Below are positions 47,377-59,900 of a stretch of 60,666 nucleotides of DNA, piece after piece. A program made the position numbers and the translations under genes. This DNA is from a virus (lineage: Duplodnaviria > Caudoviricetes): positions 1 through 60,666 of the IMG/VR virus record IMGVR_UViG_3300048898_000081. The stretch is one strand, 5' to 3'. Under the pieces are notes generated by a model. It was not told where the DNA came from and ran no database searches. It worked only from the letters and a program-made list of their open reading frames with translations. Position 1 is the stretch's first letter. Each line of letters opens with the position of its first letter.

Positions 47377-50300
47377 ATGCCGGACGGAGATTTTCTCGCA
47401 GAACTTAAAAAACGTGTTGGCTATAATCAGCCATCATCGCCAGACCTCGCATCTCAGCGAGCCGCGATAGAAAAGGGCGCGTCTCAACTAGGCGTCGACC
47501 CCACAGACCTTGCCTCAATAATCAGCTTCGAATCAGCCGGAAGTTTCGACCCGCATAAGGTCGGCGGTGAAGGGAACAGATACCGCGGGCTTATCCAGTT
47601 CGGACCAGATGAGCAGAAAACCTACTATCATCCGAACGATACCTTCGAATCACAGATAGAAAACGGCGTCGTGCCGTATTTCCGCGACCGGTTCAAGAAA
47701 GCCGGGAAAGACACGAACGGCGCGACGTTAAACGACCTCTACACGACGGTCATCGCGGGCAACCCGAATGCGAACCGGAACAAGACGGATTCGTTCGGTA
47801 CGTCTGCGAATAGCGGTGTTCAGAGGATCATCAAAGAGCACCGCCCAGAGGTCTTGAAGCGATATGGCTGGCAAGACCCGAACTCGACTCGATGGGCCGA
47901 CCAGAATCGGCCCTCCACGCCTCAAATAGACGCCCGCAGCGAGCTTTCGAAGCTCTTTGGAGGACTAGACGGCACTACGCCATCTCAGCCAGCCACAGGC
48001 CCGACAAATCCCGTCCAGCAGACGCTTAAAACGCCGGGACCGATGCCGGAGACGCAGACCACACTTGATGCCCAGCGAGCGGCCGCAAATGATCCACAGA
48101 GTTCGCGCGTCGGCGTTCTCTACACACATCCCGAATCATCGCCAGCGAGCCAGAACGAGATAGATATACCCGTGTCGAACGGTCAAGTCCTGCGGGTCAA
48201 TCGCAATAAGTTTCTTCAGTACAACCAGCAGACCGGCATTACCGCTGACGATATCACTTCAGGTAAAGCTGACTTTACGCCCCTGATCGGTGGCAAAGCG
48301 GCTCCGACGGGCGAGCCGTTTGGAACGCAGGGACAGGTTGCCGTGATCAGCCATGATGCGAACGGCAATGAACTTGTGTCGTCAGCCGTGCAAGACCCGT
48401 CGCAGGTTCCGGCTGAAGCCGCGTTGCAAAAGAAACAGTTTCCGAATACCCCGATCAAAACAAGTGTCGTTCCGGCGAGTGCAGTCATAGCCGGGAGAAC
48501 GGCGGCGACTCCGACCCAAACATCTTCTCCGTCCGGGTTGCCGCCTACTTCTACTGACGATAAAGCCTATCAAGCGTATCTCGCGGATGTGGCGCAGAAT
48601 CAGCCGGGAGTTACGCCGATGAGTCGCGAACAATATGCGGCGTCGGGGAACTTTGGGAAAGGCGTTGAGACCAGCTTAAATCCGAGCGATTTCAAAACGG
48701 GCGAGACTCCGGTCACTTCATCCGAGCTCGAGCAATTCCAGCCGACGCAGGATGGCGGTCAAGTCAGCTTTGCTCGTGAACAGGGCAAGCCGTCCGACGA
48801 TCTGACTGGCAAATTCGGCACATATCAGCCAAGCGAAAAGATCACGAATCCCTATCAAGCTTATGCACAGGCTCTTACAAATGTCGGCTCGCGGTACGGT
48901 CTGACGCCGGACAAGGCTCAGGAATTTGTTGACAGGCTGAAATCTCATGGACGCGGAGCTTTTGCGAACGAATGGCAGCCGGGAATGCCGATCGCCATCA
49001 CTGGAAAAGTTCTCGAGCAAGCGGGCGTCTCGGACATCGGTGCGCAGTCTGAGATGGAGCAGGCACGGAATGCTCAAGTTCAGCCAGATCTAAGTGTGCC
49101 AAAGGATGATCGCACGGCATGGCAGGCAATTCGCGGCCTGACGCCGGGGCAGGCATCGTCAGAAAACGACTACCAAGGCGATACGACGGGAGCGGAGGAA
49201 TTTGGGAAGCAGGTTGGAGCCAATCCGATGAACGCCCCGTATGCGGGTGTAGCCGGGGGCGTCGCAGATGTCGTCGCAGATGCTCTGAATGTGTTAGGCG
49301 GCATTCATACAACCGGCGTGACAGGTCTGGCGGAGAACATCGCGAGTTTCTTTGGAGGGGCGCCGAGGGAAACGGCATCAGGTCTTGGTCGAGCGGCTAG
49401 CCAGTTACGAGCATTTTCGAAGGGCACTGAGCAAGATGGCTTGCTCTATCAAATCCCGAAAACCGGCACGGAGATCGGCGGCGAATTCCCAATGTATGTT
49501 GGAGCAACTGCCCTAGCAGGCGGCAATCCTATTTTGGGAATGGCAGGCCTTGAAGGACTAAAGAGCGTCGGCCGCGGCGAAGACCTCAAACAGAACGCGA
49601 TCGAGACGGGCAAAGGTGCTGTGCTCGGTGCGATATTCCACGGAGCGGGCAAGTTTGGAGACTGGGCTGGGAAGAAAGTCGCTGGAAAGTTTCTGTCTGA
49701 GGAGACGCTGGCGGCGTTGAATAACCCCGCTTTACGAGAAGCCTACGAAGCGGCGAAAGCTCGCGGTGAAAATGTCGAACTGACACCGGACCTAAAACGG
49801 GCCTTGGTCGCCAATCGGCTTGTCAGTAACGGTACTCGGTTGGGGGTCATCGGAGGAACCGGAACGGCCGCGGCGAAGATCGAGGGAAAAGATTGGAGAG
49901 AATCAGTCAAGCAAGGGGGAATCTGGGTCTTGCAGGATATGGCCCTGTCGTATCTCGCAGGCGGGAAAGGCCGGAAACTTGAAGACCTCGATAACAAAGT
50001 TGTTCGTGTTCCTGATGAGCAAGGTCAACCGAAAGACGTTCTGCTTCGCCTGAATCCCGCGAAAGAACTTGAGGCAACCGATGTCACGGGACAGGTGCCG
50101 AAAGAGGTTGTTGACGCCCAGATCTTGCCATCGACCGAGGAAATGCAATCGCGGGCTCAACAATTCGAGGGCGGACTAACCCCTGAAGAAAGCAAGCAGA
50201 TCACCGAGCAATACATCGACAAACAGGGTCGCAAATACACGAAAGTAGCCGACCTTGAAAACGGCAACGTCCAAGTCCGCGATGAGAAAAGCGTCGAGAC

Positions 50301-53300
50301 GCAGCAGAACCCGAAGAATCTGGAAAAGGTTTATCCCGAGAGGGCCGAAGGGTTACAGATGGAGGCTCCGAAAGAGTCGGTGGCGTTAGCCGCTCGGCTG
50401 CCAATCTCTCCAATTAATGCCACGCCGCTTCAGCCCAGTGACGATAGAATTGGAGGTGACACCAAAATATTGACTGATACGATACAAAGTCCAACCTTCC
50501 GCGAGAAAGGCTTTAACGGCCTTGATGTCCCAACTAGGGAAATGGTGGTGTCTGAGATGCTCCACGCGATCCATGACCCGAAGGTTCGAGATTTCGTTGT
50601 TCAGTTTGTTCCCGTCGATGTGGTGGACAATCTCCTCCGCATCAAGAGACCGTCCCAAGTGTTGTTCCATGATAATCCGGTGCTCAAAGACGCTCTTCCC
50701 GCCAATATTAAAAATCCGATAACCTTGGGCAGAGATACATCCCTTTCGTTGATAGATGCCGTGGCACACTCTACTGCAAAAAACACGTCCGAGCTTCCCA
50801 ACGTGAGATCGGTTTCGGAAGACTTGAATCCCGCAAGTGATGCAGTTATAGGCGGCGTTGCGGCTCGCAACGAAACATCGTCGGGAGCAGAATCCGTGTC
50901 CAATCCCACTAGGGCATCGGCTGAATTGAGTTCCGCATTGGGGACAAGTAAGATGAATCGGCATGGTGCTGAACCTCCAAGTGAAAGCACTGTGTCTGGT
51001 GAGCCTGAGTCAACTTCGGGCTCGCCTTCTATTTTACCACAAAAATCATTCCCAACGCCTAGTGTCAAACGTCCGATTGAGAAGTCGAAAACGGAGACAA
51101 ACGCCTCCGGCGAAAGTGCCGGGGGGACGGGGAAGGGGCAGATTCTTCCCGACATCGAAACATTCTCCGCTCAATCAAAACAATTGCAGTCCGAGGGATT
51201 TTCGGAGCCAGAAGCCCGTTTTCTAATTTCAGAACATTATGGCGAAAAGGCTCAGAAATTCAATACAACTGGGAAAGAATATTCGACTGTTGCAAAGATT
51301 AAAAAGACATTTCCGCAACTGGTAGAAAAAGGTTTTATCGACATCCCGACGCTGAAAAACACTGGCGTTATACGCCTAACTGAGAGAGGACGGAATTTCA
51401 CAAACATTCGACTCGGAGCAAAGCCTGAATCCCTCAAGCAAGTAGCCGGCATCCGCGGCGCACAAAACCTTTCCGATTCCGAGGCTCGCAAGCAGAATTA
51501 CGTCATCGCGAAGTCGATGGATGAAGCGGGTCGTGACTCGAAACGCATTTGGCTCGCGACAGGTTGGGAAAAGGGTAAGGACGGAAAATGGCGGACGGAG
51601 ATCGATGATTCGGACGCGAAACTCGTTCCCGATAAAGCCCTCATCGGCAAATCGGAATTACGGGAAATTCTGGACTTTCCTGAACTCTACAAAGCGTATC
51701 CTGAACTTAAGCAAGTGCCCGTCCATTTCGATGAGAAGATGGCTCCTTCGACGCGCGGAGCATTGGGTAAGGATCAGGACGGCAATACGATCATAGCCGT
51801 CAACGCGGGACTCCCCTACAAACAGATCAAATCGACGCTCTTGCATGAAATACAGCATTTCATCCAGAGGGAAGAGGGCTTCCCGACTGGCGGATCGCCA
51901 GAGGCGTCGGTTGATAAGAAAAAGATTCATGACCTCGAACATCAGATAAACGAGTACAACAATCAATTAGCTGAACTTGTCGGCAAGCCGAAGTATCAAA
52001 CAGTGATGTCCGACAAACTTGCGGCTGTTAAGGAGTTGCAGTCTCTCCAAGATGAGCATGGAAGTGCGTTGGGGAAAGGAGCGGAAAAATACAACCGTCT
52101 CGCCGGAGAGGTAGAGGCTCGCAACGTCCAATATCGCCACTACATGACGCCCGAGGAAAGGGCGAAAACGCCACTGTCTGCATCTGAGGATGTTGATCGA
52201 GAATATCAGAGTTTGAAGATGGCAGCTCCGAATGAGAAAGTGGGCCTTCATTCGATCTATAATGAAAACGGGAGCATAAATTATGACAAAGCAAAAGATG
52301 TCGCCGGAAGAGTTGAAGGAGGCGAGCTTGAGATTAACAAATATGATCCAGCAGTCGAGCAGGGAAGGATTGCAGGAGGTCGCAGAAATGTCGAGGCATC
52401 CCTTATCCTTGCCGGAAGCGAGAGAGCAATTCAAGAAACATCGTCAACAAGCGGTCATGGGGTGGAATCGCACCGCAGACAAGAAAAACTCTTAGAGCAT
52501 TACGCTAAACGCGAAGGCGTCTGGTTTCAACCGGGCCATTTTCCCGACCGTCTCTATCTAGGTAAAGGGGGTGAGGCAATTGTCTATCAAAAAGACCCGA
52601 GCCGTGTCGCGAAAACCATTGATTATCGTCATATCGATAAGAGCATAACGCCTCAAAAGTTCCTCGATACCAGAATCTCGCTATTTAACTATCTATTCCC
52701 GGAATCGCATTATGAACTGATGGGCTTTATGCGGGACGCGAATGGGAAGTTTCGCATTATCGTCACTCAGCCCTTGATCCAAGGCGAAAAAGTGCCGGAC
52801 GTAGCCGCCGTTGACGCTTTTATGTCCGACAGGGGTTTTGAACATGACGAAGGTAATTCGTATTCAAACGACCTGTATCAAGTTCACGATCTTCATGCGG
52901 GCAACGTTTTACAGAGCAAAGAGGGTACTGTTTTCGTTGTTGATGCCGTTCCAAAATTCGTAAACGCAGAACAGTATCCGGCGTTCAATGTTGCTGAACC
53001 AGCTAAAGAGACCGAAACATTGTCCAAAGTTGCCGACGCCGAATCCCAAGCCCGTCTTGTAGAACTTCTGCCATACGTCCACTCGCAGGACATCATGGAG
53101 AACGCCAAGTTCGAGCGGAAAGGCGATCACCTTGAACTCAATGAGGAAGGCGGGGAACTGCTTCGCCGGTTGATGGGAACCGAATCGGGCGAGAATGAAT
53201 CGAGCTTTTTCGGAGCAACGCACTCGGCTGCGAAGCTTAGAAAGTTGGGCGACTTGGCGATGGAGAAAGCCAAGGAATACGTCAAGGATTACGGCTATAC

Positions 53301-56300
53301 AAACTCTCAGGTACGAAGCCTGCGGGAGCTTGGCGATCATCTGAGAGGTCTTGCGAAATCGGGTAAAGCGGGAATCACGTACGTCTATGATGATTCGCTC
53401 CCTGAGGAAACTCACCACGCTTTGATACTCGATGCGGGCGGAATATCGCCGAAAGCTATCGTGACCCTGAAAGAGAATCCGCTTTGGAACTCCGAAAGAT
53501 TCGATCAGGAATATCCGAACGCCTCAGACCGCGTAAAGGCCATCGAACTTGCCGCCAAGCTCGAAACCGGACAGGACTATTGGCCCGAGGTCAGCGAGGC
53601 CGATAAACAGGCGTTCCTAAATGTGGTGGCCGATGATATCATAGACAGGAATACAAAGGACGGGGTGTTGACCCTCGACCCCGATGTATTTCAGAGGCTC
53701 ATATCTTATGGCACGACTGAGACCGGCAACGCCGAAAGAAGCGAAACGATCCAACCAGCAGAATCAGGAAGCGAAAGCGTTGGAGAACCTGGTGGTCCGC
53801 CGAGCGAAACAACGGGGCGTGAAGGTAAAGTTTCCACGCCAGAAGGCGACATCACTGGTAATGGAGCCGCCGAAACCGCTGCAGACGAGACCGGTGTCGT
53901 TCGACCAGCCGAAGAAGGCCAACCCGCCAATGAAGCAGAGCGATCGGCAGAGCGAGGATTAAAAGAACGGAAAACCGTACAATCCGCTCACGATTTCGGC
54001 ATCCTTAACAAAAATCTCAGCGGCGACGAAACCCGCTATTACGAGACGAAATCGAACGACTCGACCGAGCGAGCCGCACAAGACCACGTTGAAAAAGTTG
54101 GATTCTCGAATGCCTTTAACGAGGCGATACTTGCCCCGTCTGAAAACGTTTCCCGTCTTGAGCATACCGCTAATCAAATGGCGGTCTTGCAAATCCTTGC
54201 CAAGAACTCAGCCGACGCGTTGAACGCCGGAAATCAAGAACTCCACGACTATTACGAGGAACAAGCCCAAGCCGTGATGCGGTCGATGGCGCCGGAAAAT
54301 ACCGATGCGGGACAAGCCATTCAGCTATTGAGCCGTTGGAAAATTACCAATCCCGCGACCGTCATCAACTTTACGAAGATGAAGATGGCCCAGAAGGGAT
54401 TGAAGCCGGAGATCCCCGCCGAGACGCAAACAAAGCTGACGGAAAATGCCCAGAAGCTAACGGACGCTCAGGCGAAAATTGATGCCCTGAATGCAAAGAT
54501 CGAATCGCTCGAAAAAGGCAAGCGTCAGTACGAGAATAAGGGCAAGAAAACCAAGCCGCTGACCTCAGTTGAGAAACGGGTTTTGGACAGCCTTGAGAAG
54601 CTGAAGAATGACGCGATCGCTCGGCTGACTAAGGTGCCGGATTCGTTGAAGATGGTTGCCTGGCACGGCTCGCCTCACAGGTTCGATAAGTTCGACATTT
54701 CGAAGATCGGCACGGGCGAAGGTGCGCAAGCGTATGGTCACGGACTTTACTTCACGGACAAGGAAAGCATTGCAGACCACTACAAAAATAAGTTAGCCAG
54801 CAAGAACGGACTAGAAGTTCACTTTGCCGATACTAAGCAACAGATGATTATGCAGAAGATCGGGGATATGAACTTTTTCCCCGATCGGATGGATCGTTTA
54901 GCGCTCGGAACGCTATGGAACCATCGCGATATTGATAAAGCCCTGGCATTCGCCCGACAGCAGATCGCCGACAATAAGATTGAACGCGAACTATACCGTG
55001 AAATTGAGTCGCGTCTGAAGGAATGGAAAGATCGTGGGGCGTATGTTCTCGGCAATGAGGGAGCTAAATACAAAGTAGACCTCAAGCCCGAAGCCGACGA
55101 ATATCTTTTGTGGGACAAGCCTCTCAGCGAGCAGAGCGAGAAGGTGAAGAAGGGGCTGGAAAAGCTTCTCGACGACCAGACGCTTGAGGACATGGCGTTT
55201 CAAAATATCGCCGTTAATACCGCCGAATCACACCTCGACCCCGATGTAACGGGCATGGGATTGTACAAAGACCTTACACGGCTCTACGGCGATAAAGCCG
55301 ATGTGTCCGACGCTTTGCACACAAACGGCATCCGCGGCATCAAGTACCTCGCGGGCGATTCACGCAACAAAGGCGAAGGAAATTACAACTACGTCATTTT
55401 CGACGATAAAGACGTTGATATTCTCGACTCGTTCAAAATGGCGGCTCCGTCGCCTCTCGCCGATGACATCCGTAACGACCTAACCGACGTTGGAGCTTCT
55501 ATCTTGCTCGAAGGCTGGCACGGCGAACCGATCACGCCCGAACAATTTCATAAAGAATTGACAAAGCTCGTCGGAAAAGGTTACGAAGCATTTTACAAAC
55601 AGATTCATGCCGAGTCCGTCGCCAAAATGGACGCGCGGATAAAGGACGAAAAGCTCAAGGGCGAGCTCGACCGTTTGCGTGAGGCGAATCCCGATAAATC
55701 GGACGCGGAACTCGCCGAACTCAATAAAAAGAATAAGGCCGAGACGAAGGAAAAGAATCAGGTGCGGGCCGAGCATCGCAAACTCGCCAATGAATTTCTG
55801 AAGGCCCCGTCGAAAGCAGCCAAAGAGCAAAAGCTGACGGCTAAAAAGATCGAGGATTTTCTGAATGCCGCCGCCGAGACTGACCTGTTCGCAGATGACG
55901 CAACACTCGCCGCCGCTCTTGCCCGAGAATCGGGTGCCGTCGGAACGTCAGAGGTGATGTCGAGGCTCAAACAATTGATGCCCGAACGGTTCAAACCCGA
56001 AGCATCCGACACCATCACCCAGAGAAAAGAGAAACAGCGAGACCTCAATAACAGCGTTGCTGAGGGCGAGAAGCTATACAAGGCCGTCAACAAGGCACAG
56101 CAAGCCCGCAGGCAAGCTCTACGCGATCAGTTGGGCAACGTGTCGCCGGAAGCCCGAAAGGAACTGGAAGCGGCCAAGACCGCCCGGCGTGAGGCTCAAA
56201 GCGACCTGACCAAGATGGTCAAGCAGACGACCCAGCCGCCGCCGACGGTGATGCACAAGGTTGCTCAAATCTCCCGTGCGTCAAAGGTCGCACTTATCCA

Positions 56301-58554
56301 GACGGCCGTAACGAATGTCATCTCAACCAAGATCGAGCAGAACATTGCGAATAAGCCGATGGACGTGATGGACATCGCCCTGCAGCGGATATTCAAGGGA
56401 CTCAAGAATGAAGGTCTTTCCGGCGATGCATCGATAGCAACGGCACTATGGACGCCGAATCTGCATAAGCCCGTCGATGAAGTCGGATTTAAGGATTGGG
56501 CGAAAGGACTTTCCAAACACGAAGTTCTCCTAAAAGCCATCGACGAGCATCCGGAATATTTCGCGAAGTTCTTTGGCGACTTCTCGCCCGACATGCACTC
56601 CGGTCTCTCGAAGGTCATCGATAAGCTGATGATCCCGATGAGAATGCAGGAATTCTTTATGCGCGACTCGGCCGGCGTCAAAGCTTTGGCCCAGCGTGCC
56701 GAGATGAAGGGCATCGATTTCAAACAGGTGTTGGCGGACAACAATTTCGATTGGGTGACGAAAGCCGATCTCGACTATGCGATGAAGGAAGCCCTGAGCC
56801 TGACCTATGCCCTGCGGCCTGAGAGAAACGGCGGCATTACCGACACGGCATTTTCCAGCGTGACATCGTTAATTCGTTCATCCGGTCTGCTCGACCTTAT
56901 CGGATCCGAATCGTTCCCGTTCCTCAATTTCATGTGGAACACGATCAATAAGTACAAGACGAAAGTTCCGGTCATGGCTCAAGCCAGACTTATTGGAAAG
57001 ACCGTCTCGGAAGCGAAACGCCTGAAAGCCGAGGGTGAGGAGCCTAATTACATCAAAGAGGCCATCCGCAACAAATGGACGTCGCGGCAGATCGCGAACC
57101 AGATGTTCGGCGTTGTCGCTCTCGCGGCAATGTACGGAATCGTAAAAGCCCTGGGCGACCGTGACGAGTGGTACTACTTCAAGATACCGTTCACAGACGG
57201 TCTCGGACGCGACGGCGGATCACTCTACGGCGACATCCGCACGCAGCCTTTGCTGGCTCCTTTCATGTTCATTGCCAACAAGCTCAATCGCGTTCTCAAC
57301 GGGAAAGACCTGTTCACCTATGGCGATGCCGCAGACGAACTGACCGAGGCGTTTCTTGGCACGTCCTATCGCTCGACGTTCGACATGAATAAGGGATTCA
57401 AGGCTATCTCGCAATTCGCGCAGCATCCGATCACGTCCGCGAACTACATAACCGGACAGGGCGACGACGAGCAGAAAAACGGCGAAAGACTCTCGATGTT
57501 CGCCCAGCAATGGCTCGGGAATGAGTTTGGAACGCTGACGAATTTCCTTCAGTTCAAGACCATGAAGGACATCGCCGCCCAATTCGATGAGAAAGAACGA
57601 AAGCCACTGAACCTCGACGAGCAGCCGGTTTTACAGGGTCTCGATGCCCGTGTTCCGGAGTCTCGCCGCATCCTGCAGGACATCATCAAAATGCAGGTCG
57701 AGGCCAGAAAGAACTATGCGACGGATAAAGAACAGGTCCGGAACCCACTGCCGGCGTTGAAAGTTCTTGGGTTTAATCTCCACGACGAGGCCGATCTGAA
57801 ACCGGAGCCGACGCAGGCTGAAATACTGGCCGCGAAACTGGCTTTTGGCGGTGATGATTACAAAGCCCCGGAACTGCCGGACGAGAAGAAAAAGGCCGCG
57901 ATCAAACGAGACTTCCGGAAGGCAGGTGAGAAGCTAACGCCGGGAATGCCCGAGGCCGATGCACTCAAAGCGAAACTCGCAACCTATGGCGAAGACCTGA
58001 CGCCCGGACAAGTTGCTTATGCCCAACGCCATTTGTTCTCGACCGATCTGCAAGACCATTTCGAGGGGCTGAAGGTAAAAGATGCTGATCGCGTCTGGAA
58101 CGCCGCCACGCCCAAAGAGAAGCCGCTTATTGAGGACGCCTATCGAAAGAAACTCGATAACGCAATGACGAGCTCGAAAGCATCGCCGCCCGAAAAGAAA
58201 CAGGCCCGCGAATTGTTCCAAAAGAACTTTGGCGATGAGAATCTGGCTCCGGAGGCACCGAAAGAAATTCAGGATGAGTTTGACCGGTTAAAGATACCAA
58301 CTCCCGGCGTCGGCGATAAGATGACTTTGGTTCCGAAGGGTGAGAAAACTACCTTGTCGACCGATCGTCGCGAGAAATACGAGCAACAAGTCCTCAACCG
58401 CACCTACACGACGATCCAAAAGATCATGGAACGCGATTCGTACAAGAACGCTGACGATACCCGCAAGAAGATCATGCTCGAGAGTGTGATCAATACCAGC
58501 CGGAAGGTCGAACGGAACCAGACTAAAGGCGACCTGCTCAAAGCCCGTCAATAA
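47377..58554 (+). CDS. giant polyvalent virion/ejection protein: lytic transglycosylase, LPD23-type peptidase, kinase, degenerate zincin, ART-like domain, helical C-terminus
   Basis: IISFES...GLIQF; TGWEKGKDGKWRTEIDD, HEIQH, LAGEVEAR; GKGGEAIVY, HDLHAGNV, VVD; WHGSPHRF...GEGAQAYGHGLYF...NYVIFD. Confidence 0.9.
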   Translation: MPDGDFLAELKKRVGYNQPSSPDLASQRAAIEKGASQLGVDPTDLASIISFESAGSFDPHKVGGEGNRYRGLIQFGPDEQKTYYHPNDTFESQIENGVVPYFRDRFKKAGKDTNGATLNDLYTTVIAGNPNANRNKTDSFGTSANSGVQRIIKEHRPEVLKRYGWQDPNSTRWADQNRPSTPQIDARSELSKLFGGLDGTTPSQPATGPTNPVQQTLKTPGPMPETQTTLDAQRAAANDPQSSRVGVLYTHPESSPASQNEIDIPVSNGQVLRVNRNKFLQYNQQTGITADDITSGKADFTPLIGGKAAPTGEPFGTQGQVAVISHDANGNELVSSAVQDPSQVPAEAALQKKQFPNTPIKTSVVPASAVIAGRTAATPTQTSSPSGLPPTSTDDKAYQAYLADVAQNQPGVTPMSREQYAASGNFGKGVETSLNPSDFKTGETPVTSSELEQFQPTQDGGQVSFAREQGKPSDDLTGKFGTYQPSEKITNPYQAYAQALTNVGSRYGLTPDKAQEFVDRLKSHGRGAFANEWQPGMPIAITGKVLEQAGVSDIGAQSEMEQARNAQVQPDLSVPKDDRTAWQAIRGLTPGQASSENDYQGDTTGAEEFGKQVGANPMNAPYAGVAGGVADVVADALNVLGGIHTTGVTGLAENIASFFGGAPRETASGLGRAASQLRAFSKGTEQDGLLYQIPKTGTEIGGEFPMYVGATALAGGNPILGMAGLEGLKSVGRGEDLKQNAIETGKGAVLGAIFHGAGKFGDWAGKKVAGKFLSEETLAALNNPALREAYEAAKARGENVELTPDLKRALVANRLVSNGTRLGVIGGTGTAAAKIEGKDWRESVKQGGIWVLQDMALSYLAGGKGRKLEDLDNKVVRVPDEQGQPKDVLLRLNPAKELEATDVTGQVPKEVVDAQILPSTEEMQSRAQQFEGGLTPEESKQITEQYIDKQGRKYTKVADLENGNVQVRDEKSVETQQNPKNLEKVYPERAEGLQMEAPKESVALAARLPISPINATPLQPSDDRIGGDTKILTDTIQSPTFREKGFNGLDVPTREMVVSEMLHAIHDPKVRDFVVQFVPVDVVDNLLRIKRPSQVLFHDNPVLKDALPANIKNPITLGRDTSLSLIDAVAHSTAKNTSELPNVRSVSEDLNPASDAVIGGVAARNETSSGAESVSNPTRASAELSSALGTSKMNRHGAEPPSESTVSGEPESTSGSPSILPQKSFPTPSVKRPIEKSKTETNASGESAGGTGKGQILPDIETFSAQSKQLQSEGFSEPEARFLISEHYGEKAQKFNTTGKEYSTVAKIKKTFPQLVEKGFIDIPTLKNTGVIRLTERGRNFTNIRLGAKPESLKQVAGIRGAQNLSDSEARKQNYVIAKSMDEAGRDSKRIWLATGWEKGKDGKWRTEIDDSDAKLVPDKALIGKSELREILDFPELYKAYPELKQVPVHFDEKMAPSTRGALGKDQDGNTIIAVNAGLPYKQIKSTLLHEIQHFIQREEGFPTGGSPEASVDKKKIHDLEHQINEYNNQLAELVGKPKYQTVMSDKLAAVKELQSLQDEHGSALGKGAEKYNRLAGEVEARNVQYRHYMTPEERAKTPLSASEDVDREYQSLKMAAPNEKVGLHSIYNENGSINYDKAKDVAGRVEGGELEINKYDPAVEQGRIAGGRRNVEASLILAGSERAIQETSSTSGHGVESHRRQEKLLEHYAKREGVWFQPGHFPDRLYLGKGGEAIVYQKDPSRVAKTIDYRHIDKSITPQKFLDTRISLFNYLFPESHYELMGFMRDANGKFRIIVTQPLIQGEKVPDVAAVDAFMSDRGFEHDEGNSYSNDLYQVHDLHAGNVLQSKEGTVFVVDAVPKFVNAEQYPAFNVAEPAKETETLSKVADAESQARLVELLPYVHSQDIMENAKFERKGDHLELNEEGGELLRRLMGTESGENESSFFGATHSAAKLRKLGDLAMEKAKEYVKDYGYTNSQVRSLRELGDHLRGLAKSGKAGITYVYDDSLPEETHHALILDAGGISPKAIVTLKENPLWNSERFDQEYPNASDRVKAIELAAKLETGQDYWPEVSEADKQAFLNVVADDIIDRNTKDGVLTLDPDVFQRLISYGTTETGNAERSETIQPAESGSESVGEPGGPPSETTGREGKVSTPEGDITGNGAAETAADETGVVRPAEEGQPANEAERSAERGLKERKTVQSAHDFGILNKNLSGDETRYYETKSNDSTERAAQDHVEKVGFSNAFNEAILAPSENVSRLEHTANQMAVLQILAKNSADALNAGNQELHDYYEEQAQAVMRSMAPENTDAGQAIQLLSRWKITNPATVINFTKMKMAQKGLKPEIPAETQTKLTENAQKLTDAQAKIDALNAKIESLEKGKRQYENKGKKTKPLTSVEKRVLDSLEKLKNDAIARLTKVPDSLKMVAWHGSPHRFDKFDISKIGTGEGAQAYGHGLYFTDKESIADHYKNKLASKNGLEVHFADTKQQMIMQKIGDMNFFPDRMDRLALGTLWNHRDIDKALAFARQQIADNKIERELYREIESRLKEWKDRGAYVLGNEGAKYKVDLKPEADEYLLWDKPLSEQSEKVKKGLEKLLDDQTLEDMAFQNIAVNTAESHLDPDVTGMGLYKDLTRLYGDKADVSDALHTNGIRGIKYLAGDSRNKGEGNYNYVIFDDKDVDILDSFKMAAPSPLADDIRNDLTDVGASILLEGWHGEPITPEQFHKELTKLVGKGYEAFYKQIHAESVAKMDARIKDEKLKGELDRLREANPDKSDAELAELNKKNKAETKEKNQVRAEHRKLANEFLKAPSKAAKEQKLTAKKIEDFLNAAAETDLFADDATLAAALARESGAVGTSEVMSRLKQLMPERFKPEASDTITQRKEKQRDLNNSVAEGEKLYKAVNKAQQARRQALRDQLGNVSPEARKELEAAKTARREAQSDLTKMVKQTTQPPPTVMHKVAQISRASKVALIQTAVTNVISTKIEQNIANKPMDVMDIALQRIFKGLKNEGLSGDASIATALWTPNLHKPVDEVGFKDWAKGLSKHEVLLKAIDEHPEYFAKFFGDFSPDMHSGLSKVIDKLMIPMRMQEFFMRDSAGVKALAQRAEMKGIDFKQVLADNNFDWVTKADLDYAMKEALSLTYALRPERNGGITDTAFSSVTSLIRSSGLLDLIGSESFPFLNFMWNTINKYKTKVPVMAQARLIGKTVSEAKRLKAEGEEPNYIKEAIRNKWTSRQIANQMFGVVALAAMYGIVKALGDRDEWYYFKIPFTDGLGRDGGSLYGDIRTQPLLAPFMFIANKLNRVLNGKDLFTYGDAADELTEAFLGTSYRSTFDMNKGFKAISQFAQHPITSANYITGQGDDEQKNGERLSMFAQQWLGNEFGTLTNFLQFKTMKDIAAQFDEKERKPLNLDEQPVLQGLDARVPESRRILQDIIKMQVEARKNYATDKEQVRNPLPALKVLGFNLHDEADLKPEPTQAEILAAKLAFGGDDYKAPELPDEKKKAAIKRDFRKAGEKLTPGMPEADALKAKLATYGEDLTPGQVAYAQRHLFSTDLQDHFEGLKVKDADRVWNAATPKEKPLIEDAYRKKLDNAMTSSKASPPEKKQARELFQKNFGDENLAPEAPKEIQDEFDRLKIPTPGVGDKMTLVPKGEKTTLSTDRREKYEQQVLNRTYTTIQKIMERDSYKNADDTRKKIMLESVINTSRKVERNQTKGDLLKARQ
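50386..50964 (-). CDS. HNH homing endonuclease (Zn fingers + HNH_3 + HTH) nested antisense in the giant gene
   Basis: CPQC..FCSRRC x2, EHRIIMEQHLGR.L...EIVHHIDGNKLNNEISNL; GGAGGT RBS 8 nt upstream; TGGTAAAAT at 51031-51039. Confidence 0.9.
   Translation of the reverse strand: MPIHLTCPQCGTQFSRCPSGIGHGFCSRRCFVASRNAAYNCITCGIQVFRNRSHVGKLGRVFCSRVCHGIYQRKGCISAQGYRIFNIGGKSVFEHRIIMEQHLGRSLDAEEIVHHIDGNKLNNEISNLRVMDRVEHLRHHHFPSWDIKAVKAFLAEGWTLYRISQYFGVTSNSIVTGLKRRGINWRDWQPSG
52283..52495 (+). CDS. nested +1-frame 70-aa helical protein, candidate antitoxin of the kinase cassette
   Basis: TATAAT at 52258, GGGAG RBS 8 nt upstream; amphipathic helices. Confidence 0.55.
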   Translation: MTKQKMSPEELKEASLRLTNMIQQSSREGLQEVAEMSRHPLSLPEAREQFKKHRQQAVMGWNRTADKKNS

Positions 58555-59900
58555 AGCATATCGGCAAGCTTCGCCGTAGCGTCTTCTCTCATGCTCGGCA
58601 AGACGTGAGAATACGTTCTCAGCAGCACCGTGACGTCGGTATGTCCCAGCTTCTCGGCAACGGCCTTTAAATTGACGCCAGCCGCGATCGAGAGCGTTGC
58701 TGCGGTATGGCGCAAAGAATAAAGCGAGAATGCAGTCTGGTCGAGACCTGCGGCCTTTACGACCGCCTTGAACTGGCGACGGTTGAGATTCCCTTTCGAC
58801 ATCGGGGCTCCGTACTCTCCCGGGACCACAAGATCATAGATTCGAATATTCTCAAGAGCCTCGCGAGCCATCCGGTTCCGCGTCTTTCGCCGCTCGTAAT
58901 TCACGCCCCGGCGTTTCATGTGCGAAAGCAAGATCTTGCCGTGCGAATCGCGTTGAAGCTCCGCTATCCACGCATCCTGTTTCTCTTTGTGCTTTAGGAG
59001 CCGTTCTTTCAACGAATCGCTAAAACTGATTGTCCGATGCGATCCCGGCGTCTTTGGCTCTTTTATCTCAAAACCGCCGCCGACAAACCCTTCTGCAACG
59101 GCTCGTCGGACCCGAATCGTCTGTTTGTTAAGGTCGACGTCTTTCCACGCCAACGCCAGATACTCGCCCGGACGCATACCGGTCTCCAAGGCAAGCTCGA
59201 ATATCACGCAGTCGTCTGACTTTCGACACGCCGCGATGAACTTCTTTGCCTCGGCCGCTGTCATTGCTCGCGTCTCAACCGGCGACGTCTTGGGCAAGAT
59301 AACGCCCCTCGTCGGATTCTTTACCAGATCATCCCATGCGACCGCCTGGTTGAACGCCGTGGATAGGAACAGGTGCAGCTTGCGGACCATCGCAGGGCTT
59401 CGTCCGTCATCCATCAGCATTCCGTAAAACGCCTGGACGTCTTTCACTTTGATATCGGAGATGTGCGTGTGCCCGAACGCCGTATTTTTGACGTATCGCT
59501 TAAAAAGATCGTCCGCCATCTCATAGGTCCGCCGAGCGACCGCCGACCTCTTGAATGTCAGATAGCCGGAAAGATATGTCTCGACCGTCGGGACGCCCTT
59601 CTTTCGCTTAACCGCCTCGAATTCCTGTTCGAGTAGCCGGGAGATAGCTTTTGCTCGCTCCTCAGTTTGAGGTTCACAGGTCCGTTTGACCTGAATATAG
59701 ATGAGGCGGCCTTTGTCGTCACGGCGATTAGTTGGGAATGTGCGCCGAACTTTCCACTCTCCATCTTGCTCCAAAACATACTTGGGAAGTTTTTTCTTCT
59801 TAAATTGTCCCGGCGTACAATTCTTAGCCCGTTTTGGGGCATTTTCGACCGTTTTTGGCCTAAATTCGACCACGTTTTGAGCTACATTTTTTCGCATCAA
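58548..59900 (-). CDS. int: tyrosine integrase
   Basis: TGMRPGE, PKT, YSLRHT, LGH...TY catalytic motifs; SAM-like core-binding domain. Confidence 0.95.
   Translation of the reverse strand: MMRKNVAQNVVEFRPKTVENAPKRAKNCTPGQFKKKKLPKYVLEQDGEWKVRRTFPTNRRDDKGRLIYIQVKRTCEPQTEERAKAISRLLEQEFEAVKRKKGVPTVETYLSGYLTFKRSAVARRTYEMADDLFKRYVKNTAFGHTHISDIKVKDVQAFYGMLMDDGRSPAMVRKLHLFLSTAFNQAVAWDDLVKNPTRGVILPKTSPVETRAMTAAEAKKFIAACRKSDDCVIFELALETGMRPGEYLALAWKDVDLNKQTIRVRRAVAEGFVGGGFEIKEPKTPGSHRTISFSDSLKERLLKHKEKQDAWIAELQRDSHGKILLSHMKRRGVNYERRKTRNRMAREALENIRIYDLVVPGEYGAPMSKGNLNRRQFKAVVKAAGLDQTAFSLYSLRHTAATLSIAAGVNLKAVAEKLGHTDVTVLLRTYSHVLPSMREDATAKLADMLY

Follow-up and report, generated by a model that had tools for sequence, protein, structure and literature searches.

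The DNA considered here, IMG/VR virus record IMGVR_UViG_3300048898_000081 (Duplodnaviria; Caudoviricetes), is referred to in its full length of 60,666 bp as the window. It contains a gene for an endonuclease of the HNH_3 family (positions 50386..50964, minus strand; 192 amino acids (aa) followed by a TAA stop codon), recognized by means of Pfam, PHROG and AlphaFold2, which lies entirely within, and antisense to, a giant gene. This host gene is an open reading frame (ORF) of 3725 aa (47377..58554, plus strand; supported by Pfam) that is open throughout, including across the antisense HNH gene. The ATG codon of the HNH gene occupies positions 50962-50964 and the giant ORF starts at position 47377, both of which are 1 mod 3, and therefore the codon boundaries of the two genes are shared. 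In this in-register antisense arrangement only the codons TTA, CTA, and TCA yield stops in the host frame, all three of them have synonyms, and the stop codon of the HNH gene itself is read as Leu or Ser. The HNH gene of the window contains none of these three codons (0 TTA/CTA/TCA). The initial annotation of this DNA had described the HNH gene as codon-in-register with the 3725-aa ORF and free of TTA, CTA, and TCA codons, and both the coordinates and the codon count agree with this; an HNH gene nested antisense and in register within an open giant ORF is thus a confirmed observation. The giant protein matches the Pfam families Kinase-PolyVal (aa 1701-1860) and LPD23 (aa 1369-1416) above their cut-offs, and ART-PolyVal (aa 2426-2492) below it (25.6 bits against a cut-off of 31.2). 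Based upon this domain content, the host gene encodes a polyvalent protein, in which several conflict-related or LPD domains are joined in one giant polypeptide, and its homologs bear many LPD families.

The HNH protein contains two Zn-ribbon-like CxxC...FCSxxC motifs (C7/C10 with C26/C30, and C41/C44 with C63/C67), and its core matches the Pfam family HNH_3 (PF13392) over profile positions 4-45 of 46 (E 2.2e-13; 50 bits against a cut-off of 24.8). The same ORF matches 17 PHROG families, 15 of which are annotated as HNH endonuclease and two of which carry no annotated function (best E 2.7e-19). As 24 nested homologs show no variation at H95, H114, H115, N123, N127, H136, and H140 or at C63 and C67, the HNH (beta-beta-alpha-metal) core is judged complete, with its catalytic His/Asn/His and Zn-binding Cys residues kept. 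The earlier description of an intact minus-strand ORF of 192 aa with two Zn motifs and a full HNH core was in this way upheld by the translation and by Pfam. In an AlphaFold2 model based upon a 24-sequence alignment (predicted local distance difference test, pLDDT, 92.1; predicted template modelling score, pTM, 0.61), the C-terminal region (H147-188) is helical and Foldseek matches helix-turn-helix (HTH) domains there, but no Pfam HTH match was found in this region, and the C-terminal HTH proposed initially is thus supported by predicted structure and not by the profile search. The top Foldseek match in the Protein Data Bank (PDB) is I-HmuI (1u3e), with a probability of 0.99 but with E 0.015 and a template modelling (TM) score of 0.29-0.32, and the two proteins are 23% identical over 128 aligned columns; a sequence search of the PDB with the HNH protein gave no match. 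Judging from these similarities, the enzyme appears to be an ordinary nuclease of the HNH_3/I-HmuI type.

The leader of the HNH gene contains a Shine-Dalgarno (SD)-like site, GGAGGT, 8 nt before the ATG (50973..50978, minus strand), a hairpin (50998..51026, both strands), and an extended -10-like element, TGGTAAAAT (51031..51039, minus strand). The ribosome-binding site (RBS), leader hairpin, and extended -10 element claimed previously are therefore all in place, as sequence matches only, and a generic promoter scan did not include the TGGTAAAAT element among its predictions. The closest nested relative, at locus L003, shares the leader layout (TGGTATAGT, an 8-bp stem, AGACAC, and AGGAGG), and its stem differs from that of the window at three positions, each with a matching change on the opposite arm in this comparison of two sequences only. 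SD-like sites similar to that of the window are also present in L003, L005, L007, and L008. The HNH gene thus appears to have a start codon, a stop codon, and an RBS of its own, and probably also its own promoter. On the plus strand, within the giant ORF, the same hairpin forms a stem of 12 pairs with a T-rich tail, TTCTATTTTA, after it, and is terminator-like; its stem pairs better on this strand (G-T wobble) than on the minus strand (C-A mismatch).

Recurrence of antisense HNH genes in giant ORFs

The initial annotation had suggested a search for antisense-nested HNH genes in other long phage ORFs, and this search yielded many examples. An HNH gene was regarded as nested when it lay within an in-register antisense ORF of at least 600 aa. 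A total of 29 distinct nested DNA loci were identified, all of them in register, consisting of the one in this window, 16 on IMG/VR contigs and 12 on prokaryote contigs. With the plus-frame peptide as query, eight loci were obtained from IMG/VR, and in seven of these an ORF of >2000 aa runs across an in-register, intact antisense HNH gene whose product is 34-48% identical to the HNH of the window; the eighth (L008) is a free-standing HNH gene with four antisense-stop codons. When HNH proteins were used as the query, 11 of the 80 best IMG/VR loci were nested, including 8 of the top 9 (two of the 11 are the contigs of L006 and L007), and of 80 loci from a collection in which each prokaryote species is represented by a single genome, 12 were nested, including 11 of the top 13. 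The nested genome loci include that of an isolate, Aromatoleum anaerobium LuFRes1 (L097), and another (L096) has a complete host ORF of 2164 aa with LPD22. The domains LPD22, LPD1, LPD5, InPase, and LPD23 are found in other host ORFs with nested HNH genes. No antisense ORF of at least 600 aa was present in either of the other registers in the 80 IMG/VR loci; the longest, of 523 aa, overlaps an HNH relative at L083:4001-4204 and is not codon-in-register.

Free-standing HNH_3 genes having a gene-length, stop-free, in-register antisense frame were also observed, in 12 of 82 rows of the IMG/VR tree and in 17 of the 80 genome loci (examples are L017, L045, L019, L053, L030, L064, and L066). Of these, L017 and L045 group with the nested genes in their clade, possibly as copies that have escaped or are pre-adapted, and others may be a simple effect of high GC.

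At the protein level, residues 601-1350 of the giant protein were compared by phmmer with 1.84 billion cluster representatives, which gave 198 hits at E <= 0.001, and the segment antisense to the HNH gene was present in 129 of 149 rescanned giant-protein representatives. Among these 129, the length is at least 1000 aa in 103 and at least 2000 aa in 74, and the segment is matched in two stretches in five. In P0217, which is one of these, a single match has probably been split in two; P0207, P0218, P0216, and P0304 have two separate antisense-HNH segments per giant protein, about 2700 residues apart in one of them, and repeated colonisation of one gene is therefore indicated. This wide distribution at first looked like the case that the initial annotation had named as contrary to its reading, viz. 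a plus-frame domain conserved in homologs lacking the HNH gene. However, every segment that could be inspected as DNA has an intact HNH gene antisense to it.

In a tree of 82 rows, a clade of 18 rows with a Shimodaira-Hasegawa-like approximate likelihood ratio test (SH-aLRT) value of 99 was comprised of 16 nested genes and two genes with an open antisense frame, with none having antisense stops, and the remaining 64 rows hold a single nested gene. In a larger tree of 124 rows, which is based upon fewer columns, the nested label requires 5 changes as compared to 26.2 in shuffles, none of 500 shuffles being as low. The clustering of the nested HNHs in these sequence trees is firm. The most similar nested pair (64.5%) consists of L007, an IMG/VR contig, and L096, a Herminiimonas metagenome-assembled genome, whose HNH genes both lie 6-8 residues ahead of one and the same zincin-like module; this shared position agrees with a site that was either inherited or reached by homing.

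Constraint on the two frames

Based upon the codon usage of the phage, an antisense register that is open over 192-228 codons has a P of ~0.0002-0.025, and the chance of finding no TTA, CTA, or TCA codon given the amino acid sequence of the HNH is ~0.002-0.025; 65 of 7447 segments of 228 codons in the genes of this phage are open in the in-register antisense frame. In the 29 nested HNH genes, TTA and CTA together account for 1 of 522 Leu codons and TCA for 0 of 408 Ser codons, and the corresponding numbers in 137 non-nested relatives are 293 of 1087 and 117 of 714. The lone exception is a CTA that forms the final codon of L159; this gene has a GC content of 32%, and none of these codons otherwise occurs among its 15 Leu and 28 Ser. 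On these codon counts the plus frame is kept stop-free in nested HNH genes, and the host frame can be read through the HNH gene because only three codons stop it, all of which have synonyms and are avoided by the element. Tests based upon codon usage (plus-versus-minus log-odds and synonymous-codon scores) failed to separate the frames, the codon bias of this phage being weak (scores of -0.02 for the plus frame and 0.004 for the HNH frame; 0.088 +/- 0.044 for sense segments).

It could be supposed that translation of the giant ORF does not continue through the element, either because this ORF represents two genes, or because of RNA or protein splicing, or because transcription ends at the plus-strand hairpin. 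The terminator-like hairpin with its T-rich tail (plus strand, 50998-51026) is what this explanation has in its favor, but terminator-like structures number 3 as compared to 1.9 in shuffles, which is not above chance. Further, the host frame extends for hundreds to thousands of codons on either side of the element in 29/29 loci, without a stop for an upstream gene; antisense stops are avoided even at 32% GC, which is unexplained if the frame is unread; and a conserved domain of one nested relative (L170) is interrupted by the element without loss of the frame. A search of positions 49500-52000 against Rfam with E up to 10 gave no intron and only two irrelevant matches, and no Hint or intein domain was matched by Pfam in aa 1004-1231 of the giant protein. 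Among contigs from public sequencing runs, X1 (4747 nt; possibly the window's own source sample) spans 48632-53378 and X2 (1701 nt; a different sample and study) spans 50251-51951, both with 0 differences, and no contig joint skipping the element was found in these runs, although contigs may miss rare variants. With no intron in Rfam and both junctions bridged in two runs, neither the splicing nor the assembly chimera that the initial annotation had named as possible refutations was encountered, and we regard lack of translation across the element as highly improbable.

Antisense to the HNH gene and its leader is the read-through segment, which comprises aa 1004-1231 of the giant ORF (50386..51069, plus strand). 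When eight nested HNH genes were compared over identical codon columns, the mean identity was 38.1% in the HNH frame and 26.6% in the plus frame, where 23.3% is expected for a pure by-product (mean z 1.2), and the nucleotide differences at HNH codon positions 1, 2, and 3 were 0.505, 0.419, and 0.611, respectively. Across the 29 loci the HNH identity exceeds the plus-frame identity in 400 of 406 pairs. Of the single-nucleotide codon differences, 8241 are synonymous in the HNH frame only and 2960 in the plus frame only, a ratio of 2.8 to 1 that is drawn from non-independent pairs; for the closest pairs the corresponding numbers are 30:10, 21:3, and 35:9. The AlphaFold2 model of the plus-frame peptide has a pLDDT of 53.2 and a pTM of 0.26 (17 sequences; depth similar to that of the HNH alignment), in contrast to the 92 and 0.61 obtained for the HNH. 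Additionally, the conserved plus-frame motifs are the antisense of HNH motifs (VPVDVVD versus VHHIDGN, and DVPT..MVV versus HHH..WDI), and no Pfam or PHROG family covers the plus-frame segment. Because of the frame identities, the synonymous changes, and the contrast in pLDDT, the HNH is regarded as the selected protein and the plus-frame "family" as its shadow. These comparisons support purifying selection on the HNH frame with plus-frame conservation near the by-product level, and they back the earlier view that the plus-frame peptide resembles antisense translation rather than a domain; the read-through segment may accordingly be seen as a tolerated spacer.

The same data bear on the possibility of a dual-coding module, in which the plus-frame peptide (GLDVPTQRMV...VPVDVVD) is a functional polyvalent domain and both strands are under selection. 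Consistent with such a module are the plus-frame identity above the expected value, the predicted helical structure of residues ~21-75 (pLDDT 70-84), and the presence of the segment in most of the giant-protein representatives. However, the excess of HNH identity and of HNH-only synonymous changes, the low pLDDT and pTM of the peptide, and the lack of a Pfam or PHROG family over it are all contrary to this possibility, and the segment is absent from 78/80 homologous host genes and from 20/20 proteins sharing the upstream module of the giant protein. Dual coding is therefore considered unlikely.

Insertion sites, empty alleles, and mobility

The initial annotation had proposed that alleles lacking the element should differ in length by a multiple of three. 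Such alleles were found for a relative, but none was found for the window. The contig of L005, designated L170, has ~89% nucleotide identity in both flanks to L173 and L174, which are without the element and are shorter by 504 nt (168 codons); the conserved WLG and HEQFARGFE motifs are separated by 179 aa in L170 and by 11 aa in L173/L174. To the left of this insertion (L170 ~2400-2490), about 25 host residues are far more diverged from L173/L174 than is the near-identical remainder of the flank, a pattern resembling that of a co-conversion tract or of divergence at the target site. When 80 IMG/VR relatives of the L005-type host gene were compared, 76 of them with an upstream flank of 700 nt or more, an HNH gene of any kind was present in only two (the contigs of L005 and L009). 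Homologous host genes are also shared by L005, L007, and L009, whose HNH genes are at different sites, so that each provides an empty site for another. The presence/absence polymorphism expected of mobile homing endonuclease genes is thus observed for the L005/L170 relative. Two L005-type polyvalent-gene regions (L231/L232; 42317-49663 and 25589-32935) were also seen ~17 kb apart on one IMG/VR contig of 49.9 kb.

In the giant protein of the window the element lies between a conserved upstream module (aa ~606-920; 49192..50136, plus strand), which is common to 20 giant proteins, and a downstream module consisting of LPD23 and a HExxH (zincin-like) motif (aa ~1346-1611; 51412..52209, plus strand). 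None of the 20 proteins sharing the upstream module has the antisense-HNH segment. In one of them (P0221) the modules follow in the same order and the gap is shorter by 223 aa, which is a coincidence of length only; the alignment with P0221 sets no insertion boundaries. The insertion sites vary, being located in Pro/Glu/Ser-rich linkers in the window, L002, and L003 and inside a zincin-like domain in L005. The LPD23/zincin module was considered as a preferred target and rejected, as it occurs within the locus in only 4 of the 28 other nested loci. The flanks contain repeat matches of chance size only, and neither a target-site duplication nor terminal inverted repeats were seen. L102 was considered as a decayed HNH copy and rejected, its gene being intact.

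That the nuclease is domesticated and serves the phage, either by attacking competing phages or host DNA or by antisense regulation of the giant late gene, also appears improbable to us. In agreement with domestication, the HNH gene is intact and under purifying selection in 29/29 loci with no decayed copy seen, and apart from the integrase no other gene of the window is on the minus strand. However, its occurrence is sporadic (2/80 related host genes), with presence and absence between alleles that are ~89% identical, its insertion sites differ within homologous genes, and some proteins have two copies. The sporadic presence, varied sites, and double copies therefore constitute the pattern of a selfish element rather than that of a fixed useful gene.

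The initial annotation had read the arrangement as a splicing-free strategy in which the element is tolerated as an in-frame spacer, and the comparative checks support this reading, mostly on relatives rather than on the window itself. We consider it probable that there exists an HNH lineage which resides antisense and in register within giant modular phage or prophage genes, the host ORF being translated through it. The stronger proposal, that this lineage has a "stop-free antisense" design enabling it to colonise coding sequence directly and to be translated as a spacer, which would be a third strategy for sparing the host gene, is held with somewhat less assurance, although we favor it. We infer that the HNH gene is expressed, that the insert is translated through, that the nuclease is active, and that it spreads by homing. 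In the mechanism that we envisage, the HNH gene would be transcribed from its own promoter, and its avoidance of TTA, CTA, and TCA would allow the host ORF to be read straight through, adding ~170-230 poorly structured residues to the host protein. Such an insert would be tolerated by the host protein, aided by the beads-on-a-string build of polyvalent proteins, and an intron, an intein, or a gene split would be unnecessary for sparing the host gene. Spread would probably rely on gene conversion set off by the endonuclease, which is how other homing endonucleases of phages spread, and the element would probably move occasionally to new in-frame sites.

Several observations weigh against this proposal. 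The first eight loci came from a plus-frame query, which is biased to open frames, and the search was therefore repeated with HNH proteins. The plus-frame identity slightly exceeds the by-product expectation, so that some plus-frame constraint is possible, and residues ~21-75 of the peptide are predicted to be helical. The promoter is a consensus match only, and several nested HNH genes are without an obvious SD site or promoter. A single origin of the nested HNHs is not established, because the main clade of the 124-row tree (24 nested genes and one other) has an SH-aLRT of 75 and five nested rows branch outside it. No example of the arrangement was found by tblastn with three nested plus-frame peptides in 50,697 GenBank phage records. 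Lastly, searches of IMG/VR and of JGI metagenome contigs gave no close relative of this giant gene from which insertion boundaries or an empty allele could be defined for the window. The sole close relative of the giant gene that was seen is a database protein of 259 aa (P0203), which is 80% identical to residues 620-874 (window 49234-49998) and ends short of the insertion site.

Long plus-strand ORFs are arranged end to end along the window, and the only minus-strand genes in it with family support are the HNH ORF and an integrase (58548-59900). The latter is of the tyrosine type (450 aa; phrog_1, E 1e-69), and its gene shares 7 nt with the end of the giant ORF; a temperate phage or prophage is therefore the probable source of the contig. 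The initial annotation spoke of a giant virion gene, whereas the domain matches identify a polyvalent protein, and the genes adjoining the giant ORF have no informative PHROG matches. The region has no DNA match in GenBank phages, and its distant tblastn matches include Pseudomonas phage genes annotated as "structural protein" or "internal virion".

Comparison with known homing endonuclease systems

Homing endonucleases are generally regarded as persisting in essential genes by means of self-splicing introns or inteins, by gene splitting, or by residing between genes. The mode of residence described here, which on the sequence evidence is neither intronic nor by intein, split, or intergenic location, appears to be new. 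A full-text literature search, which covered the text of articles and included a term search of PMC3915230, did not turn up any homing endonuclease described as nested antisense and in-frame within another gene. The main text of a paper on polyvalent proteins contains none of the terms "antisense", "homing", and "opposite strand", although its supplementary domain tables could mention the segment (PMC5512222). The arrangement may have escaped notice because no example was found in GenBank phages with the three plus-frame queries and because gene callers suppress nested antisense genes. As gene callers give the giant ORF only, protein databases do not show the nested nucleases (a search did not return even P0001), and the antisense peptide can pass for a conserved "domain" of polyvalent proteins.

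If the proposed reading is correct, splicing-free antisense read-through would be an added strategy of homing endonucleases, and long stretches of DNA would be translated in both directions, with an antisense-derived peptide being fed into giant injected phage proteins. It would also provide a natural, recurrent example, with good statistical support, of two antiparallel protein-coding genes of prokaryotic viruses of which one is wholly nested in the other, a class that is described as usually being dismissed as an artefact (bioRxiv 10.1101/724807). The filled and empty allele pairs (L170 versus L173 and L174) and the isolate prophage (L097) provide material for testing these possibilities.

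Among the known systems, the I-HmuI-type enzymes of Bacillus phages SPO1/SP82 share with the nested HNHs the HNH_3 family, a layout in which a helical tail of DNA-binding type comes after the HNH core, and their phage-borne nature. The gene for I-HmuI is located in sense orientation inside a self-splicing group I intron. In contrast, the nested HNH gene is antisense, no intron was found for it, and the host ORF would be read through. Inteins with a homing endonuclease are likewise in-frame insertions that are translated with the host protein; however, they are sense-strand, fused to Hint, and spliced out, whereas here the reading is antisense, no Hint domain was found, and the peptide is presumably retained. 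The free-standing homing endonucleases of phages, such as T4 mobE and seg, are described as having their own expression signals, a sporadic distribution, and spread by cleavage and gene conversion (PMC2790892; PMC2988022). In contrast to the nested lineage, which is inside coding sequence, these genes are located between genes. The mobE gene in nrdA of Aeromonas phage Aeh1 is similar in being a homing endonuclease gene within an essential coding sequence without an intron or intein. In this example of "genes in pieces", nrdA is reportedly split by mobE into two polypeptides that reassemble, whereas the host frame here stays continuous.

The WHO elements of yeasts are said to use neither an intron nor an intein, to be of another nuclease family, and to adjoin their target gene rather than being antisense within it; in contrast to the elements described here, they are also eukaryotic. 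Together with the HO endonuclease they have been described as an "unorthodox" homing element family (PMC7282813). With regard to the plus-frame peptide, the nearest parallel is the dnaK-antisense "glutamate dehydrogenase" PF10712, described as an apparent family only because the opposite strand is conserved (bioRxiv 10.1101/724807). The plus-frame peptide behaves like this shadow ORF, its conservation being due to the opposite strand. However, unlike PF10712, the shadow frame here forms an in-frame part of a real giant gene and its avoidance of stops appears to be selected; as bona fide domains flank the shadow frame and stop avoidance is selected, both strands are very probably translated.

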